Notes under the pieces: model-generated | Databases searched by the model: none | What the model saw: the letters and a program-made list of their open reading frames with translations, nothing else | What the model was told of the DNA's origin: nothing | Origin: an uncultured delta proteobacterium | GTDB lineage: Bacteria; Desulfobacterota; Syntrophorhabdia; Syntrophorhabdales; WCHB1-27 | NCBI GenBank assembly: GCA_963810935.1 | Contig: CAWEPK010000012.1 | Span: 192,001 to 256,000, forward strand | Length of the DNA: 64,000 bases | Reading direction: 5' to 3' | Part shown: positions 17,791 to 35,235 of the stretch, piece by piece | How positions within the stretch are numbered: position 1 is the stretch's first letter | Layout: every line of letters begins with the position of its first letter | Program-made: the position numbers and the translations under genes

Positions 17791-17904
17791 CAGCCTGACC
17801 TAACCGTTCTGATTGTTATTGACGCACAGAATGATTTTTGTGCTACATCAGCGACAAGGAAAAGTAGATCGAACGAAATACAGGCGGGAGGAAGCGGAAG
17901 ATGA
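17791..17904 (+). pseudogene. Isochorismatase/cysteine hydrolase N-terminal relic
   Basis: Translates TVLIVIDAQNDFC right after the MFS stop; no start codon and no remainder of the domain. Confidence 0.55.
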
Positions 17905-19247
17905 TAGATGACTTGAGAACCCAACTGGAAGCCGTGGAAAACTGGGGAGAGGTGTTGCACATCCGGAAGGAGGTAAACCCCCGGTTTGAGCTTCCGGCGA
18001 TTTGCAAGAAACTCGAGGCGGGAAAAGCAGTGATCTTCGAAAAGGTAAAGGGATATTCCATGCCCGTGGTGGTGGGCCTGGACAACAGCCGTTCCCGAAT
18101 GGCCCGCGTCCTGGGCACCGATGACTTCGGCCTGACTCCCCGATATCTGGAGGCGATCCGCAATCCCTTACCCCCGGTGGTCGTGAAAGACGGGCCCGTC
18201 AAGGAAGTAAAGATTACACGGGACATCGACCTCCTGAAGACCCTGCCGGTCATCACCCACTACGAAAAAGACGGGGGACCCTATATCACCGCCGGGGTGG
18301 TCATAGCCGAAGACAAGAACCGGGGCGTTCGCAATATCTCCTACCAGCGGATGCAAATCACGGGGAAAGATGAGATCGGGCTTCTCATTCAGCCCCGGCA
18401 CCTCTGGAAGCTCTACACGGACAGAGAAAAAGAGAACCAACCTTTAGAAGTGGCCGTGGCCATCGGGCTGGATACCGGCATCCGCCTCGCCGGGGCGACC
18501 TGGGGTTCCCTGATCCCCCTGGGTTTCGATGAACTCTCCATTGCCGGAGCCCTGAGACAGAAGGCCGTGGAGATCGTACCCTGCGAAACCGTGGGGGTCA
18601 TGGTCCCCGCCCGGGCGGAGATCGTCCTGGAAGGAGAAATCCTGCCGGGGACGCGAAAGACCGAAGGCCCTTTTGCGGAGTTCACCGGGACCTACGGTGA
18701 CGTCTGGGAGAATCCCGTTCTCCGGGTGAAAGCCATAACCCACCGGAGGGAGCCGATCTATCAGGACCTCTTAACCTTCACGCCCGAACATCATCTGCTC
18801 CTGGGCGTCCCCTATGAGCCCGTGGTCTACCAGGCAGTCAGGACCTATGTCCCCGGAACAAGGGCGGTGCATATTACCCCGTCCGGTTGTGGCAAGTTTC
18901 ATGTCGTAATCTGCATCCGGAAGGAACATGAGGGAGACGGCAAGGACGCGATCCTGGCCGGCCTCTACAGCGTCCGGGACATCAAGCTGGTCACGGTGGT
19001 GGATGAGGACGTGGACCCTTTTAACCCCCGGGACGTGGAGTGGGCGGTGGCCACGCGATTTCAGGCAGACAGAGACCTGGTTGTAATTTCCGGGGCCAAA
19101 GGTAATGAGCTGGACCCGTCCTGCCCCCAGTTGGCCCTGACAGCCAAGATGGGGATTGATGCCACCAAGCCCTTAGCCCGGAGCGAGCGGTTCGAGAAGA
19201 TCCGCATCCCCGGGGTTGAAGACCTCAAGGTCCAGGATTATTTATGA
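17901..19247 (+). CDS. UbiD-family prenylated-FMN (de)carboxylase
   Basis: EKDGGPYIT, RNISYQRMQ, AEIVLEG, EGPFAEFTGTY, VVDEDVDPFN, KMGIDATKP. Confidence 0.92.
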   Translation: MIDDLRTQLEAVENWGEVLHIRKEVNPRFELPAICKKLEAGKAVIFEKVKGYSMPVVVGLDNSRSRMARVLGTDDFGLTPRYLEAIRNPLPPVVVKDGPVKEVKITRDIDLLKTLPVITHYEKDGGPYITAGVVIAEDKNRGVRNISYQRMQITGKDEIGLLIQPRHLWKLYTDREKENQPLEVAVAIGLDTGIRLAGATWGSLIPLGFDELSIAGALRQKAVEIVPCETVGVMVPARAEIVLEGEILPGTRKTEGPFAEFTGTYGDVWENPVLRVKAITHRREPIYQDLLTFTPEHHLLLGVPYEPVVYQAVRTYVPGTRAVHITPSGCGKFHVVICIRKEHEGDGKDAILAGLYSVRDIKLVTVVDEDVDPFNPRDVEWAVATRFQADRDLVVISGAKGNELDPSCPQLALTAKMGIDATKPLARSERFEKIRIPGVEDLKVQDYL

Positions 19248-22061: not shown

Positions 22062-22153
22062 CCGCAAAAACTCCTCCTTCTTCCGTTCCGCGCCTTTCGG
22101 CCTTCCTATTGACAACCGCCTTTCGGCCGTGAAACACTACGACGAGGGTGTGC

Positions 22154-23429
22154 ATGCACTATGCGTGGGTCATAGCCGGCGCCGGGGCGGTCATCGTTCT
22201 CTTCGCGCACGGCCTGGCAAGGATGTCCTACGGGGTGATCCTTCCGTTCATGAAGGAGCAGCTCGCCCTCAACTTACACCCAGATCGGCCTGATTGCGAC
22301 GGGCAACTTCATAGGCTACCTGCTGTTTACAACGTTCGGCGGCTTTCTGGCGGCCCGCTTCGGCACCCGCAAGGTCATAACGATATCGCTCTTCATTACG
22401 GGTTTCTTCCTGTTCATCACCGGCTTCGCGAATTCTTTTTCATTCGCCTTCGTCGCCCGGCTGATAACGGGTATAGGCAACGGCGGCTGCTTCGTGCCGA
22501 TGATGAGTCTGCCCGCCGCCTGGTTCGTTGCGAGGAAGCGCGGCATGGCTATGGGTATAGTCAACATAGGGGTATGCATGGGCCTCGTCCTCTCCGGGTT
22601 CTTGCTGCCCTCCTGCATAAGCTTCTTCGGCGCCGAAGGGTGGCGCTGGGCGTGGCGCTTCATAGGCATCGGCGTCGTCGCCTGCGCCTTCCTTTGCTGG
22701 GTAGTCATAAGGAACAACCCGGCCGAGAAAGGGCTTTCCATGTACGGGGCATCGGCCGGCGACGCGCAGCCTCCCCAAGTGTTGACGCTTTTCGCCGCCT
22801 TCCGCCGCGTAGTCGGTGAAAAGGAGGTCTGGAAGCTTAGCTGCGTCTATCTGACCTACGGCTTTTCTTACATCATCTACGTGACGTTCTTCGTAGCCTT
22901 CCTTACGAAAGAGGCGGGGATGACCACTGCCCAGGCGGGCGCCATCTTTGCGACGATAGGCGTAATCGCCATTTTCGGCGGGCTCCTTACCGGCATGCTT
23001 TCAGACGTCATCGGCAGGCGGTATGCCTGCATCTGCGTTTACCTGACCCTCGCTCTCGCCTACGCCCTGCCCGCCTTCTTCAGCGGGAAGGCGATCTTTT
23101 ACGTGTCGGCGGTGCTGTTCGGCCTCGCCTTCTCCGTGCCGGTGCTCATGGCCGCCGCGGCGGGCGATGCGGTTGGCGGCCGGCTCGCCCCGGCAGCCCT
23201 TGGCCTCACCACGCTCGTTTTCGCCATCGGCCAGATATTCGGGCCTTACGTGGGCGGCTACATCAAGGACGCGACAGGCACGTTCACATATTCCTTCATG
23301 CTTTGCTCCGCCGTTGCCGTAGCAGGGGCGCTCTTCTCTTTGCTCCTTAAAAAGAAGGCACAACCGGAGACCGAAAGGGGCCTCGCCAAAAGAGGGCCGG
23401 ATGAGGAGAAATCGCCATCTTTGGCTTGA
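22154..23429 (+). CDS. MFS transporter (YbfB/YjiJ-like), frameshift near 22272
   Basis: HYAWVI..GLARMSYGVILPFMK N-terminus joins the ORF with LAARFG and LSDVIGRR motifs. Confidence 0.85.
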
Positions 23430-23500: not shown

Positions 23501-24520
23501 ATGGACAGTAGCAGAAGGGATTTTCTGAAGGGCGCGTGCGCCGTCGCAGTCGTGGCAGCGTCGCTGGGAGGCGTAAAGCCGAAAGAAGCGCACGCCGCAC
23601 CCGAAGCAGGGTCCAAAAGCGGACTGGCAACAGGCCTGACGCTCCTGACGATGAGCCACAGCGACGAATACCGCCTGGGCGCCAAAACTGAAAAGGGTGT
23701 CCTCGACGTGCACAAGGCGGCCACGCTGCTCCGTATGCGCGCCCCTGTCACGATGGACGATATGCTACAGAACGAGGAAGGGGCAGCCGTGAACGCAGTC
23801 GTGGCGGCAGCCCTCAAGTCGGAATCCGCGCGGACTGCCTTCGCCCCTGAGTACACCGTCGGTTACGGACCGGTAGTTACGCGGCCGGAGAAGATCATCT
23901 GCGTCGACCTCAACTACAGGCGGCACGCGGCGGAAGTCGGCGCGCCCATACCGAAGGCGCCCGTTCTCTTCAACAAATACAATACCGCCCTCAACTGTCA
24001 CAAGGGCTTCATAAAGCTGCCGGTGGAGGTCGCGAAGAAATTCGACTACGAGTGCGAGCTGGTCATCGTAATGGGACGCACGGCGAAGAATGTAAGCGAG
24101 GCGGACGCCCTGTCATACGTCGCCGGCTACTGCACGGGTAACGACTTCACCGCCCGCGACCTCCAGAACGAGATGGGCGGCCAGTGGATGCTCGGCAAGA
24201 CGCCGGACCAGTTCGCCCCGCTCGGGCCTTACCTCGTCACTGCCGACCAGGTCGACCCCGATAAGCTGAAGGTCGAGCTGCGCGTCAACGGCGAGCTCCG
24301 CCAGTCGTCGAACACGAGCGACATGATCTTCAACACCCGGAAGATAATCAGCTTCATCTCCCGGTATATCACAATGAAGCCGGGGGACATCATCTTCACG
24401 GGCACGCCGGAAGGCGTGATCGCGGGCAAGCCGCCTGCCCACCAGGTATGGCTAAAGCCCGGCGACAAGATCGCGTGCAGCCTCGAAAAGCTGGGCGAGC
24501 TGCGGTTTGACCTGACATAG
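23501..24520 (+). CDS. Fumarylacetoacetate hydrolase-family protein with Tat signal peptide
   Basis: SRRDFLK..AHA signal; LNYxxH, DYECEL, NDFTARD, GDIIFTGTPEGV. Confidence 0.88.
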   Translation: MDSSRRDFLKGACAVAVVAASLGGVKPKEAHAAPEAGSKSGLATGLTLLTMSHSDEYRLGAKTEKGVLDVHKAATLLRMRAPVTMDDMLQNEEGAAVNAVVAAALKSESARTAFAPEYTVGYGPVVTRPEKIICVDLNYRRHAAEVGAPIPKAPVLFNKYNTALNCHKGFIKLPVEVAKKFDYECELVIVMGRTAKNVSEADALSYVAGYCTGNDFTARDLQNEMGGQWMLGKTPDQFAPLGPYLVTADQVDPDKLKVELRVNGELRQSSNTSDMIFNTRKIISFISRYITMKPGDIIFTGTPEGVIAGKPPAHQVWLKPGDKIACSLEKLGELRFDLT

Positions 24521-24668
24521 GGAATCGATCACCGCTTAGGTCTGTTTTGCATCTTTCCGGCGCAAACCGGCATGGAAAGTCACGTCAGGTTGCAGCCGGC
24601 CTTCCGGGTAATTACACTTAGACAAACAGCTACGGTCTTCATATACGTCCGACAACGGAGGTCGCAAG

Positions 24669-26099
24669 ACGGCTTCACCCTTCAGGCTGCTCATAGTCCG
24701 CCTGCCATGCAGGAAAATCTATCCGGTGGGGCCGGTCTACGTCGCATCCGCGATCCGGCGGGCCGCGCCCGACCTGCCTGTACGCCTGCTCGACCTGGCG
24801 GCAGTGCAGGCTGCGCCATCAGCCAAAAGGCGTCTTCTTGCTACGGTGATACGCGAATTCCGGCCGGACGCGATCGCCTTCTCCTGGCGTGACCTCCAGG
24901 TCTTTGCCCCACAGGACATGGACCACGGACTAAGGCACGCCTTCACGTTCTTTTACGACCCGTCGCTTACAAGGAGAGCCGCCGCAGCCGTCGCGGGCCT
25001 CGGCGACATCATTCATTACAAAAGCGCCCTTTCCGAAGGGCTTAGCCTCATGCGGGCAGCCTGCGCAGCAGCCCCGGCAGCGCAAATTGCCGCAGGCGGG
25101 CCGGCGATAACAATATTCGGAGACCAGCTCAAGCCGCGCGTGCCCGCGCAGGTACGCCTGATCTCCGACCTGCCGGAGCTCTTCCCTTTCCTCGGCCTTA
25201 CCCCCCCGGACGACCCCTTCGAGCCGATGCTCGACCTTTCGGCGATCGAGCAGGTCTTCCCGCAGTGGACCGCTTATACGGACAACGAGATAGGCGTGCA
25301 GACGAAACGCGGCTGCCCACAGCATTGCCTGTACTGCCTCTATGGCTACCTCGAAGGCAGGCAGGTGAGGCGCAGGCCGCCGGAGCGCGTCGTGCAGGAG
25401 ATCGCCGGCTACTGCGAAAGGTGGGGTACGCGCCGCTTCTGGCTTGCGGACGCGCAGCTCCTCTCGGGTCCTGCCGATGAAAACCACCTGTCGGAGCTTC
25501 TCGGCCGCGTCATCAGTCGCAGGCTCGACCTGACGTGGTCCGGCTATATCAGGGTCAACGGATTGAAAGAACGACTCGCGCGGCTCATGGTCGAATCGGG
25601 CCTGTGGGACATCGAGGTAGCCCTCAACTCAGGCGCACAGGGCGTGCTCGACGAGCTTCGGATGGGCTTTTCCGCCGATGACGTAATTGCGGGGCTCGCC
25701 GCGCTTGCGCAGGCAGGCTACAGGGGGAAGGTGAAGCTCGATATCTCCCTGAACAGCCCAGGCGAGACGGAAGATACGCTCCGCGAGACGATAAGCGTCG
25801 TCCGGAGGATAAAGGCAATGTTCGGCCCGGACCGCGTACTCCCCGTCATTTTCTTCCTCGCAGTCCAGCCGCACACCGGCCTGGAGAAGAGGGCCCTCGC
25901 GGACGGCGCGCTGAAGGCAGGATACGACCCGTTGAGCGTCTGGCCCTGGGACGTGCGCAAGCTGATCTACAACCCCCCGCCGCTCGATGCCGTCATAGGA
26001 CGCTCGTGCGCCCTTGCCTTCCGCAATCAGGCGTCCGAGTGCGGAGACGTTATCATGCAAAACCTGGAAGCGGCCCTTTTCGGCCAAGGAGGTGCTTAA
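24669..26099 (+). CDS. B12-binding radical SAM protein, cyanobacterial Slr0320-like
   Basis: RLLIVRLPCRKIYPVGPVY, FSWRDLQVFAP, VQTKRGCPQHCLYCLY (CxxxCxxC), LIYNPPPL; conserved N-terminus lies upstream of the called GTG. Confidence 0.8.
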   Translation, partial: TASPFRLLIVRLPCRKIYPVGPVYVASAIRRAAPDLPVRLLDLAAVQAAPSAKRRLLATVIREFRPDAIAFSWRDLQVFAPQDMDHGLRHAFTFFYDPSLTRRAAAAVAGLGDIIHYKSALSEGLSLMRAACAAAPAAQIAAGGPAITIFGDQLKPRVPAQVRLISDLPELFPFLGLTPPDDPFEPMLDLSAIEQVFPQWTAYTDNEIGVQTKRGCPQHCLYCLYGYLEGRQVRRRPPERVVQEIAGYCERWGTRRFWLADAQLLSGPADENHLSELLGRVISRRLDLTWSGYIRVNGLKERLARLMVESGLWDIEVALNSGAQGVLDELRMGFSADDVIAGLAALAQAGYRGKVKLDISLNSPGETEDTLRETISVVRRIKAMFGPDRVLPVIFFLAVQPHTGLEKRALADGALKAGYDPLSVWPWDVRKLIYNPPPLDAVIGRSCALAFRNQASECGDVIMQNLEAALFGQGGA

Positions 26100-27021
26100 A
26101 TGCCGGGCACAGGCATTGTCGCCGGTAAGGTAAAGGTCTATTTCGGCTTCTCGCGGATGTCCCATTCGGTGCTCGATATCGGCCACCCGGCAGTGGCGGC
26201 GCTGCTCATGCTTGGGCGCATGGCCGCACTACCCTACGCTCATACTCGGCCTCGTCGCCGCCTTTTCCGGTTACACGGCCGTCTTCGCCCTCAACGACCT
26301 GATGGACTTCAAGGTGGACACTGAACGGATCGAGCAGGCGCGCAGGGACTTCACCGCCTTCGACCTGGACGTACTCGGCGTCCGCCACCCCATCGCGCAA
26401 AAAGTGCTCACTTTCCGGCAGGGCCTTGCCTGGGTGCTCTTCTGGGGCATCATCTCCCTCGCCGCCGCCTTCATGCTCAGCCCCCTTTGCTTCCTCATGC
26501 TGCTCATCTCTATCGGGTTGGAGATGACTTACTGCGCCCTGCTGCGGTTAAGCCACTGGAAGGCCGCGCTCTCCGGTCTGATGGTGGGGGCCGGGGCGCT
26601 CGCGGGCGTCTTCGCGGTCGACAACACGCCGTCTATCTCTTTCAGCTTCCTGATATTCATGTGGTCGTTCTGCTGGGAGGTAGGGGCGCGGAATATCCCG
26701 AACGACTGGACCGACCTTGAGGAGGACACGCACCTGGGGATAAGGACGTTCCCCGTTCGCTACGGCCGGGCAATCTCTGCGCGGGTATCCTTCTGCCTAA
26801 CATCACTTGCAGTGCTCGCCAGCGTCCTGCTCCCCGTCTACGGCTCCTGTTCGAACCCGGTGCTCTACGAGGCCGGGGCCCTTGCCGCCGGCGCTTTCCT
26901 GATGGTGGGGCCTGCGCTCAAATGGCTCCGCGAAGGCACGGTAACAAGCGCCATAGCGCTGTTCAACCGGGCGTGCTTTTATCCGGCGGCCATGCTGGGT
27001 ATCGCGATAATAGCTATATAG
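26100..27021 (+). CDS. UbiA-family prenyltransferase, frameshift near 26215
   Basis: FALNDLMDFKVD, RHPIAQ, NIPNDWTDLEED Asp-rich motifs; ATG immediately after the radical SAM stop. Confidence 0.88.
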
Positions 27022-27969: not shown

Positions 27970-28201
27970 GCCAAGCCGCACGGAAAGGCGAGTCATGCCG
28001 GCCATTCTAATCGCCTATAGGATCCTGGAGAAGGAGATCGTCCATTCTCTCCCACCGGATGCCAACGAAGATCGATCTGGCCATATTTCGTGAACTCCTT
28101 TCGAACCTTCTCGACGAGACGAGCAGCAAGGCACGGGCAGGTAAGCAGCGGATAACGGTAGGTAGGTGCGGCCCTTGTGCTATAATGAAGCGGGAGGCCC
28201 G

Positions 28202-28910
28202 GTGAGAGAGAAAAAGCCTTTATGCCCTTGCACCGAGATACCCGTCTCGGGGACCAGTTCGGGGTTGTGCCTGGGGCGCGTCTGGCTCTTCGAGAGCCTC
28301 GAGCCTCCTGATTTGCAGGCCCTCATAGGTTCGGCGGTGAGGAACGTCTATGCGCCGGGCCAGCCGATTTTCGTTCAGGCCAATCCTACCGACCGGATGT
28401 TCCTCATCAAGGCAGGGAGGGTTAGGCTGAGCAAGCTCCTTGAAGACGGAACGGAGCTTACCCTCGACATAAGGAAAGCGGGCGATTTCCTGGGCGAGAA
28501 CATGCTCGGGGAAGAGACCGTCTACCCGGTGACGGCATTGTGCATGGAGGAGACCCTGACCTGCGGATTTACGAAGGAAGGGTTCGAGAAGCTGGTCCTT
28601 GGCCACCCGCGCATCGGACTTCAGGTAATGAGAAATCTGAGCAAGCGCATATCATCTCTGTCCAGCCGCATAGAGGCCATGTCCCTCACCCACCTGAGCG
28701 AGCGCCTGTACCAGGTGCTTCGCCACGTGGCGCTGGAACACGGGGTCAAAAGCCAGGCCGGTCTGGTCATAGAGTTCCCCCTCACCCATGATGACCTCGG
28801 CGTTCCTCGTTGGCGCCCACCGGGTGAGCGTCACGAGGGCGCTCAAGGAATTGAAAAGAACGGGGAGCGTCTCCCAGCAGAAGAGACGCCTGGTGGTACG
28901 GGGGGATTAA
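28202..28910 (+). CDS. Crp/Fnr-family regulator with N-terminal Cys (HcpR-like), frameshift near 28800
   Basis: CPC..C N-terminus, cNMP-like domain (GDFLGE), LTHDDL + shifted FLVGAHRVSVTRALKEL HTH ending TAA 28910. Confidence 0.85.
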
Positions 28911-28922
28911 AAAGGAGGTTCT

Positions 28923-29390
28923 ATGGGAGAAGTCATCCACACATCGCGCATCAGGATCGTGAGGGAGAAGGGCCCCACGCGGAAGGCAGTCATAGAGGGG
29001 TTCAACGAGCCGGTATACTACGGCGTCCATAGCGGCATCAAGAAGTTCTACGGCGTCGAACCGGAGAAGGAATATCCCGCCACCCTCGATCATATCATCG
29101 CCGCTACGGCCGGCTGAATGATGGGAACACTGGCCGCGGCGCTGGCCAGAAAAGAGATAAACACGAGGGGCGACCTTTACCGGGCAGAAGTAGAGGGTGA
29201 CATAGAGAACGTTAACGGAGTATTGAAGATCACTCAGATTCGAGTCGACTACCACTTGACGGCAAAAGACGAAAAGGCGCAAGGGGCCCGCGATGCCTTT
29301 GCCTCCTACATTGCCTCATGCCCTGCCGCCCAAAGCGTGATCGGCTGCATTGGTATAAAGGACAACCTGATCTTTCACGCAGAGAACTGA
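28923..29390 (+). CDS. OsmC/Ohr-like selenoprotein (Sec at TGA 29115-29117)
   Basis: Two same-frame ORFs separated only by TGA: ATLDHIIAATAG-U-MMGTL at the first OsmC Cys position; second Cys in SCPAAQSV. Confidence 0.85.
29130..29149 (+). promoter_or_regulatory. Putative bacterial SECIS hairpin (OsmC-like)
   Basis: CTGGCC-GCGGCGCT-GGCCAG starting 12 nt after UGA; G-containing apex. Confidence 0.65.
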
Positions 29391-33062: not shown

Positions 33063-35235
33063 ATGAAAAAGCTAAAGATAGATATAGAAAATTGTTACGG
33101 GATCAAGAAACTCAAGGCCAACCTGGATTTTGATAAAAAGAAAGCTAATGCTATTTACGCCCCAAATGGGGCAATGAAGACCTCCCTTGCCCAGACTTTT
33201 AAGGATATACAGATGGGGGTACCCTCGAAGGATCGGATATTCATAAATCGCGTGCCCAAAAGGAATATTACGGACGAAACCGGCCTTGATTTGGCTACGG
33301 AGAATGTCTTGGTTATATGGCCTTACCAAGATCGTGATGATATTCAGCAAACGGAAAAGACCGCAACTCTACTCGTGAATGCTCAACTTCGTCAGGAATA
33401 CACGAACCTCCACAAAGATATCGAAAAATCCAAAGAAACGTTCCTCAAGACCATGAAGAAGCAGTCGGGGTCAAAGAAGGACTTAGAAAATGAGATCATT
33501 CTCGCGTTTACGGCAGACGACCTCCGTACTGCACTTAATCGCGTACGGTATGAAATGGCGGAATTGAATGATGCTCCATTTGCTGAGATTAAATATGACA
33601 TCGTTTTTGACGATAAGAGTGTTAGAGGTTCTTGGCACGGGGGACGTTAAAACAGCCATCGAAGCGTATATAAAGAATACAACGAATTGCTGGCCAATTC
33701 GACATACTTCAAGAAAGGCGTATTTAACTATTATAACGCTCAGGCCATCGCTAGGGAATCTAGCTGACAACGGTTTTTTCACCGCCAAGCACTCGGTAAA
33801 CTTGAATGCAGACATGGAGAAGATAGAGATCAAGAGCCGAAAGCAGCTTGAAGAGATAATACAAAAGGAAAAAGACGGCATAACAAACGATCAAGAACTC
33901 CGAAGGAAATTCGACGACATTGAAAGTCTCATTCATGCAACCAAACAGCTTCGGGGATTTGAGGATTACCTGGGCGATCATCAGGACATTCTCGCAGAGT
34001 TGGCGGATGTCGATAGATTCAGGCAGAGGATTTGGAAGTCTTATTTTAAGGCACACTACGATCTTTACAATGACTTGGTTGAAAAGTATCAAAAGGCTGA
34101 GAAAAGAGAAGCTGAGATCGTCAACGAAGCTAAAAAAGAACGTACGCAATGGGAGGATGTTATTGATATCTTTAACAGCCGCTTTCTTGTCCCTTTTAGG
34201 TTAGAAGTGAAGAACAGAACGTCCGTAATGCTAGGTTTTGAGAAGATACCAACCTTGACGTTCACTTTCGTTGAAGGAGCAGAACAGGCACCTATGGAAC
34301 GTGAATCGTTATTGGCGGCTCTAAGCACAGGGGAGCAAAGGGCGTTCTATTTACTGAATATCATTTTTGAAGTGGAAGCTCGAAAGAAGTTACAGCAGGA
34401 TACGGTATTGATTATTGATGACATAGCCGATTCGTTTGATTACAAGAACAAGTATGCCATTATTCAATATTTGAAAGATATTTCCGAGGAACAATACTTT
34501 CACGAAATCATTTTGACGCATAATTTTGATTTTTTTCGCACGGTGAATAGCAGGTTCGTTGATTATCCGCATTCTTTTATGGCCGTAAAAAACAAAGATG
34601 GCGTTTCATTAGAACTGGCGACGGGCGTACATAAGCCTTTTTCTAAGGACTGGAGGCTGTGTTTCTTCGACGATCCGAAGAAGAAAATTGCCTCAATTCC
34701 TTTTGTCCGAAACTTGATTGAATATACAAAAGGTGAGGGCGCCCCTGAGTTTGTTAAACTCACCTCTTTGTTACACTGGAAGAAAGACTCTAAGAATATC
34801 ACCATACAGGAATTAGATGACATGTTTGCCGGGCTATGTTGTATGGCCCTTCCAGCGCAACATGATGGCAACGGTATAGTAGTTGATCTAATCGAGACTG
34901 AAGCTAAGAAATGCCTTACGGCCGACGAAGGCATCAATTTGGAAAACAAGATTGTCCTGTCAATCGCTATACGGATAGCAGCCGAGAAATTTATGGTGGA
35001 CAAGATCAAGGATCCTAAGTTTGTTGACAGTATAAAATCGAATCAGACAACCGATTTATTGGCGAAATTCAAGCAACTGTTCCCGAAAGATACGGTTACT
35101 ATCAAGGCACTTGATCTGGTGGCGCTTATGACACCAGAAAACATACACCTGAATTCATTCATGTATGAGCCAATCTTAGATATGTCCGATGAACACTTGA
35201 GGAAGCTGTATAAAGATGTTTTAGCCTTAAAATGA
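33063..35235 (+). CDS. ABC/SMC-like ATPase, PrrC/RloC-like architecture (putative defence); several frameshifts at 33620-33760
   Basis: Walker A-like YAPNGAMKTS, coiled-coil middle, signature LSTGEQRA, Walker B IIDDIADSFD, LTHNFDFF H-loop; AT-rich. Confidence 0.75.

Follow-up and report, generated by a model that had tools for sequence, protein, structure and literature searches.

An Slr0320-like radical SAM protein coupled to an unclassified UbiA-family prenyltransferase in Syntrophorhabdales: a candidate system for respiratory quinone methylation

The stretch of DNA analyzed here (the window; 64,000 nucleotides, positions 192,001 to 256,000 of contig CAWEPK010000012.1, assembly GCA_963810935.1, from an uncultured bacterium of the order Syntrophorhabdales) carries on its plus strand a gene for an Slr0320-like radical S-adenosylmethionine (SAM) protein at 24669-26099, followed immediately by a gene for a UbiA-family prenyltransferase at 26100-27021. 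The latter belongs to a clade without classification, which we call UbiA*. The pair is real and conserved. On balance, we lean toward the reading that it C-methylates the ring of a respiratory quinone resembling plastoquinone, with all of the chemistry being what we infer from sequences, predicted structure and gene context. The idea of a link between Slr0320 and quinones is already published; the coupling to the UbiA* clade, the swap with a class I methylase and the tie to oxygen reductases described below were not found in print.

UbiA* lies directly downstream of the radical SAM gene in 56 of 58 evaluable loci of the clade, a redundant set from which we excluded loci truncated ahead of the 3′ end or followed by <250 bases of sequence; once the loci were merged at 90% identity, the count was 28 of 30. 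The coupling put forward in the original prediction thus extends to non-redundant relatives. Pair hosts are Syntrophorhabdales and Spirochaetia, and the linkage therefore spans two phyla. The pair occurs in 11 of the 96 genomes of the order Syntrophorhabdales, all from one family, and in 0 of 300 other genomes sampled from the phylum. Since the sampled genomes are kin and not independent, naive Fisher tests overstate such associations and are not used as evidence. At two loci of the pair clade (L100 and L104), genes for a polyprenyl synthase, UbiE, the radical SAM protein, UbiA* and a DUF2231-cytochrome c protein stand together. A DUF445 gene directly follows the pair on its 3′ side in Spirochaetia (L003, L004, L005 and nine further loci). 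Two neighbors in the window, an FAH-family gene (23501-24520) and a UbiD gene (17901-19247), were set aside as they are conserved no further than the closest relative.

The radical SAM frame encodes 476 aa, a predicted ring C-methyltransferase, and contains all the motifs that the original prediction had named as typical of Slr0320: VRLPC, FSWRD.Q..AP (here FSWRDLQVFAP), VQTKRGCP leading into CxxxCxxC, and LIYNP.PL (here LIYNPPPL). The CxxxCxxC [4Fe-4S] motif (25314-25337, plus strand; C216, C220 and C223), unchanged in all 18 sequences aligned and backed by a PF04055 match, is the radical SAM core expected of class B methylases. The best of 21 NCBIfam matches is NF045585 (rSAM_slr0320; 342.6 bits, E 3.5e-102), with the next family at only 120 bits, yet the curated equivalog cutoff of 775 is not reached. 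Nitrospirota-type and archaeal Slr0320 homologs likewise fall under this cutoff, at 399-489 bits. The second hidden Markov model (HMM), TIGR04072, describes a lipid-associated family, and the third is the BzaD model TIGR04385 (116 bits, cutoff 450). In the ESM Atlas, the protein lies closest to cyanobacterial and Nitrospirota clusters (0.98). The Slr0320 model fits best over the full length and the motifs are common to the wider Slr0320/LFE2124-like group. The likeness originally noted therefore holds by a wide margin for the family at large, though not for the equivalog: by sequence, the protein is Slr0320-like and, with the NF045585 cutoff missed, lies outside the cyanobacterial equivalog.

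The natural start of this gene in the window sequence has no ATG, GTG or TTG. A Shine-Dalgarno-like GGAGGT, read from the sequence at 24657-24662 (plus strand), stands six bases upstream of an ACG, an arrangement common to the window, L001, L023, L076 and L015, with GTG, TTG or ATG at about that site elsewhere; runs X2 and X3 span the ACG unchanged. Translation probably starts at ACG 24669. The ACG start behind a strong GGAGGT (window 24657-24671) is genus-wide, and gene callers begin 19 codons late, at GTG 24726. Contigs of RNA run X5 cover parts of both genes of the pair, and contigs cannot show transcription.

As the original prediction stated, the two genes abut, with the radical SAM stop (TAA) closing at 26099 and the ATG of UbiA opening at 26100, though the UbiA frame from this ATG breaks after 74 codons and the remainder (26212-27021) lies in another frame. 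The shift traces to a single extra base at 26208-26212 (plus strand) that is missing from the relatives L001 and L002 and from 4/4 public runs, namely three DNA runs of one study, which may include the source sample, and one RNA run of another. The extra base is therefore most likely an assembly error, and a true pseudogene was rejected on the same grounds. Both genes are likewise split, at different places, in one relative (G301). In relatives, the UbiA protein has 306 aa. The intact L001 ortholog, 95% identical to the window protein over residues 38-306, stood in for it in the analyses. Other genes of the same assembly also seem to be split by single-base shifts (window 22148-23429, 28166-29032 and 33063-35235; contig C12 of the same genome, 189282-189999), which is in line with an error-prone assembly.

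UbiA* is a UbiA-superfamily protein, with 91.2 bits to PF01040 (cutoff 34.2) and both Asp-rich motifs (NDxxDxxxD and NDxxDxxxD-type) conserved, and it reaches no NCBIfam cutoff, the best HMM being TIGR01475 at 74.9 bits. MqnP models give 28-36 bits, under their cutoffs, and the MenA and CyoE (heme O synthase) models give no match at E<=0.001. The PDB yields a single sequence match, to DGGGP synthase (E 4e-4).

Sister UbiA* genes (34-44% identity) were found in 34 of the 300 phylum genomes, all of which are without the radical SAM gene; an identical UbiA* protein is on record in the cultured species Desulfococcus multivorans. Their recurrent partners are a cytochrome b5-DUF2231 protein, a class I methylase of 200 residues that we call MT1, and UbiE, whose best match is MpqE in 4/4 tested (264-269 bits, under the cutoff of 335). 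In nine regions (L179, L223-L229 and L230/231), all four genes are grouped with a cbb3-like or A-type oxidase; the regions read were picked for containing MT1 or an oxidase, and seven MT1 matches recover their own alignment by construction. In an unselected test, oxygen-reductase-type PF00115 matches were found in 27/34 sister genomes versus 10/46 controls, with a line of E<=1e-70 that was chosen after seeing the data and drops long NOR-like matches (29/34 versus 14/46 without it). MT1 is present in 22/34 sister genomes (6/6 of one genus, g203) versus 1/24 controls, and in 8/19 genomes of the family f2, all eight of which have an oxidase. It is found in 0/14 pair genomes (0/11 Syntrophorhabdales, 0/3 Spirochaetia). 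Because MT1 accompanies the sister genes in this way and is missing where the pair occurs, the radical SAM protein likely replaces MT1 beside UbiA*. A full A-type oxidase match was found in 2/3 Spirochaetia pair genomes and a partial one in the third.

The module of UbiA*, cytochrome b5-DUF2231, MT1 and MpqE-like UbiE near oxidases recurs across Desulfobacterota (L179, L182, L194, L223-L234), and NrfD-like genes upstream in the oxidase regions presumably belong to an alternative complex III. At L190 (4508-10921), UbiA* adjoins UbiG-like, UbiB-like, 3-dehydroquinate-synthase-family and TIM-barrel genes, between cydAB-like and cbb3-like genes. The literature searched, subscription journals excepted, holds no description of the UbiA* module or of the radical SAM-UbiA* pair.

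Several distinct partners tie the wider Slr0320-like family to quinone genes. Among 30 more distant loci, UbiA* is found in none, a UbiE-like gene lies within 1.2 kb in 22 and a MenA-like gene in three; 3/6 of the UbiE-like neighbors tested pass the MpqE cutoff. Further distant members lie next to a polyprenyl synthase gene, a U32-SCP2 gene of UbiV-like type or genes for cytochrome b/b6. At Hydrothermarchaeota-like loci (L144 575-9841, L147 and L148), cytochrome b/b6 genes, a methylase and the Slr0320-like gene precede a MenA-like gene, and the row continues with a second methylase, a TIM-barrel isomerase and an oxidoreductase. At L149 (1819-5205), a UbiV-like U32-SCP2 fusion, the Slr0320-like gene and UbiE stand in tandem, a candidate oxygen-independent benzoquinone route.

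The predicted model of the radical SAM protein (pLDDT 87.9) comprises a five-strand Rossmann domain, resembling a shortened cobalamin domain (24687-25193, plus strand; from secondary structure of the model and alignments), and a radical SAM barrel, and its top Foldseek ranks are MgmA, AprD4, TsrM, OxsB, TokK and CysS. The pair clade forms a long branch of the radical SAM tree (31 rows, SH-aLRT 93, quick tree). This short clade retains strands 1-5 and the strand-3 loop, with Arg74 of that loop invariant in both alignments. TsrM places an Arg of the same loop (Arg69) under the cobalt (PMC13331322), and Arg74 may be its equivalent, judged by topology. The "B12-dependent" label of the original prediction is uncertain for this protein: the modeled domain and the fold matches to cobalamin enzymes speak for it, but PF02310, carried by 6/120 homologs among the matches listed, gives no match to the window protein, and the GEGE motif is lost.

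Under the reading that we lean toward, UbiA* would attach a polyprenyl tail to an aromatic ring precursor, perhaps not 4-hydroxybenzoate. The radical SAM protein would move an intact methyl group from SAM via methylcobalamin to free carbons of an electron-rich quinol ring, at positions that would be C5/C6 in plastoquinone numbering and perhaps by polar chemistry of the TsrM kind in which Arg74 sits beneath the cobalt, thereby doing the job of the class I MT1 found beside the same UbiA clade elsewhere. The product would be a methylated prenyl-benzoquinone of a new kind, serving the cbb3-like oxidase chain of a nominal anaerobe. By extension, Slr0320 and the Nitrospirota LFE2124-type proteins could be the C5/C6 methylase still sought for plastoquinone and methyl-plastoquinone. 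A broader proposal is held more tentatively, as a possibility that we would put somewhat short of even: that a further pathway to a high-potential quinone, with the UbiA* clade at its core, travels with oxygen reductases in nominally anaerobic Desulfobacterota and in soil and peat Spirochaetia, that its ring methylase in the lineage of the window is Slr0320-like, and that the Slr0320 family is the C5/C6 methylase of both quinones. The methylated prenylquinone of the original prediction stands in part: genomic context backs a prenylquinone role and points less to a MenK-type methylmenaquinone than to a separate module tied to oxygen reductases.

A number of observations weigh against ring methylation by the pair. 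The G[ED]GE motif is found in 0/31 pair-clade rows of the alignment versus 20/20 rows outside and is present in CysS and TokK, and ~25 residues after strand 5 are gone; cobalamin binding by the pair clade is uncertain because of these losses. AprD4, a top fold match, is cobalamin-independent. UbiA* scores 42.6 bits on the 4-hydroxybenzoate prenyltransferase model TIGR01474 (cutoff 275) and has Tyr or Phe in 20/20 rows seven residues before the first Asp-rich motif, where 4-hydroxybenzoate prenyltransferases carry an Arg. The genome that holds the window, which is 93% complete, has a generic UbiE that is not of the MpqE-like type, no U32 hydroxylase (flavin hydroxylases lay outside the search) and no PF01947 chorismate lyase (PF04345 UbiC lay outside the search), and within the families searched its ring precursor route was not identified. 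Both MT1 and the radical SAM gene are missing from 12 of the 34 sister genomes; three of these 12 have a UbiG-like gene. No oxygen-reductase-type match was found in 4/11 pair genomes, and 10/11 non-pair members of their family have a PF00115 match; as a marker, oxidase presence thus fails to separate pair from non-pair genomes within the family. The pair does not adjoin an oxidase in its own genome or in six pair regions read at 12-16 kb. Because the 11 pair genomes belong to one family, the exclusions may amount to only two or three events. Finally, LFE2124 and two homologs gave no methylation of 4-HP8 in E. coli (PMC11874023 SI).

Several of these points also bear on other explanations. If the radical SAM protein, with its shortened domain, carried out some other reaction on the ring in the making of a prenylquinone, for example hydroxylation without oxygen or decarboxylation, then the loss of GEGE and ~25 residues in 31/31 clade rows, the rank of AprD4 among fold matches and the want of a U32-type hydroxylase candidate in its genome would all be accounted for; in Nitrospirota, too, the C1 hydroxylase has yet to be found, and the E. 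coli methylation test was negative (PMC11874023). However, the gene missing where the radical SAM gene is present is the class I methylase MT1 and not b5-DUF2231, strands 1-5 and the strand-3 loop remain conserved, and PlqH is essential in Synechocystis despite Slr0320 (PMC12998194), which leaves this explanation improbable. We regard it as quite unlikely that the product is a non-quinone, i.e., a methylated prenyl lipid or an oxidase cofactor. UbiA* meeting no family cutoff, its one PDB match being DGGGP synthase and the lipid-associated TIGR04072 ranking second would fit such a product, but the neighbors are of quinone type (MpqE/UbiE, UbiG, UbiB, UbiV and polyprenyl synthase), UbiA* has no heme O synthase match, the module stands beside both cbb3-like and A-type oxidases, and two genomes (G387 and G389) have a separate heme O synthase. 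A role in cobamide lower-ligand synthesis like that of BzaD, with the UbiA link incidental, draws on the 116 bits to TIGR04385. That score is far below the cutoff of 450 and lower than that of the Slr0320 model. The open reading frame (ORF) clusters from 85 loci include no bza or cob neighbor that recurs, and the coupling to UbiA persists across two phyla, so that we consider this role extremely improbable.

Another explanation is that the radical SAM protein is a non-homologous stand-in for MenK/MqnK, methylating a naphthoquinone to methylmenaquinone, while UbiA* would prenylate a naphthoate that is scavenged or already methylated. A MenK-like gene (PRK08629, which we take to be the MenK family, over cutoff and with QITYYPLM) is present in 73 of the 96 order genomes and in none of the 11 with the pair. 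MenK was not found in the genome of the window, which agrees with the original prediction of a route other than the HemN-like one: neither this genome nor the radical SAM protein gives a HemN-family match, and YPLM, presumably the MenK/MqnK motif, is found in 0/28 of its CxxxCxxC ORFs. The same genome has retained MqnP-like, MqnL-like and MenA-like genes but not those for ring synthesis (MqnA/D, MqnC and MenB: none over cutoff), and archaeal Slr0320 homologs adjoin a MenA-like gene. On the other hand, MenK occurs together with UbiA* and MT1 in four genomes (G310, G313, G316 and G318), and therefore UbiA* serves something other than the route of MenK. MenK is also missing from six family members without the pair, the exclusion (73/96 versus 11/96, overlap 0) may be one loss, and UbiA* has no MenA match. 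Cyanobacteria and aerobic Nitrospirota, which harbor the nearest kin of the family, are not known to make methylmenaquinone, which we count against this explanation as well. We hold it to be unlikely. UbiA* as a plain substitute for MqnP or MenA was rejected, as 17/34 sister genomes have MqnC, most with a separate MqnP-like gene, and pair genomes keep a MenA-like gene. In some f2 genomes, the PRK08629 match spans only the first 270-290 residues of longer frames.

The window genome also has six UbiD-family genes, a CcoN-like oxidase (257 bits, under the cutoff), a b5-DUF2231 gene and a UbiB-like kinase; MT1 was not found in it. On its contig C13 (551-6039), the permease of an ABC transporter shares its reading frame with an MqnP-like prenyltransferase, and an MqnL-like UbiD comes next. 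Long frames in several relatives suggest that this is a real fusion for precursor scavenging; MqnC is found in 0/21 genomes of the family. On contig C5 (258565-261165), a possible divergent UbiA-like ORF, a polyprenyl synthase and a weak UbiE-like methylase form a small cluster.

In an slr0320 mutant, transfer from QA to QB is slowed, and plastoquinone methylation was suggested without a test (PMC8065906). The hint that the pair gives at the function of cyanobacterial Slr0320, which the original prediction had drawn, gains from several quinone partners but is thus not new, and the negative E. coli result stands against it (PMC11874023). A clear plastoquinone methylase is "yet missing" (PMC12998194), and most methyl-plastoquinone producers are without MpqQ (PMC11874023). 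Labeling of +3/+6/+9 was taken to argue against radical SAM methylases for methyl-plastoquinone (PMC11874023). It does not exclude cobalamin methylases, because these retain all three deuteriums (PMC8992657), and co-expressed uptake genes improve cobalamin loading (PMC8992657). Repeated independent coupling to quinone genes, together with the swap with a class I methylase, revives Slr0320 as a methylase candidate. A putative quinone module tied to the oxygen reductases of Desulfobacterota is relevant to the way in which anaerobes handle oxygen and to the age of high-potential quinones; a ubiquinone pathway was found in another class of the phylum (preprint 10.1101/2025.09.17.676790, 2025).

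Among known systems, the class C enzymes MenK/MqnK share with the window protein a radical SAM core, a proposed quinone ring methylation and a complementary distribution in the order, yet they have the HemN fold, whereas the window protein has a cobalamin-domain fold. The sp2 C-methylases TsrM and BzaD resemble it in the fold match to TsrM, the Arg after strand 3 (PMC13331322) and the rank of BzaD as third-best HMM; TsrM is 12-14% identical, neither cutoff is reached and the window substrate is predicted to be a lipid. In the methyl-plastoquinone pathway, C5/C6 methylation is shown only for the class I MpqQ, and the pair hosts lie outside the phyla named there for methyl-plastoquinone (PMC11874023). 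Slr0320 itself (NF045585) is by far the best HMM, with the motifs over the whole length and the same two-domain plan, while the window protein differs in its score (343 versus 775), its shorter cobalamin domain without GEGE, its non-phototroph host and its coupling to UbiA. The Leptospirillum cluster mpqA-mpqC-LFE2124-mpqE, in which LFE2124 has ~40% identity to Slr0320 (PMC11874023), differs in that UbiA* forms a clade of its own, gives no MpqA/PlqA match and scores weakly on the UbiA model, and in that no PF01947-type chorismate lyase was found here. It is alike in that an Slr0320-like radical SAM gene is clustered with a prenyltransferase in a context of aerobic respiration, and homologs beside MpqE, as in that cluster, were recovered here.

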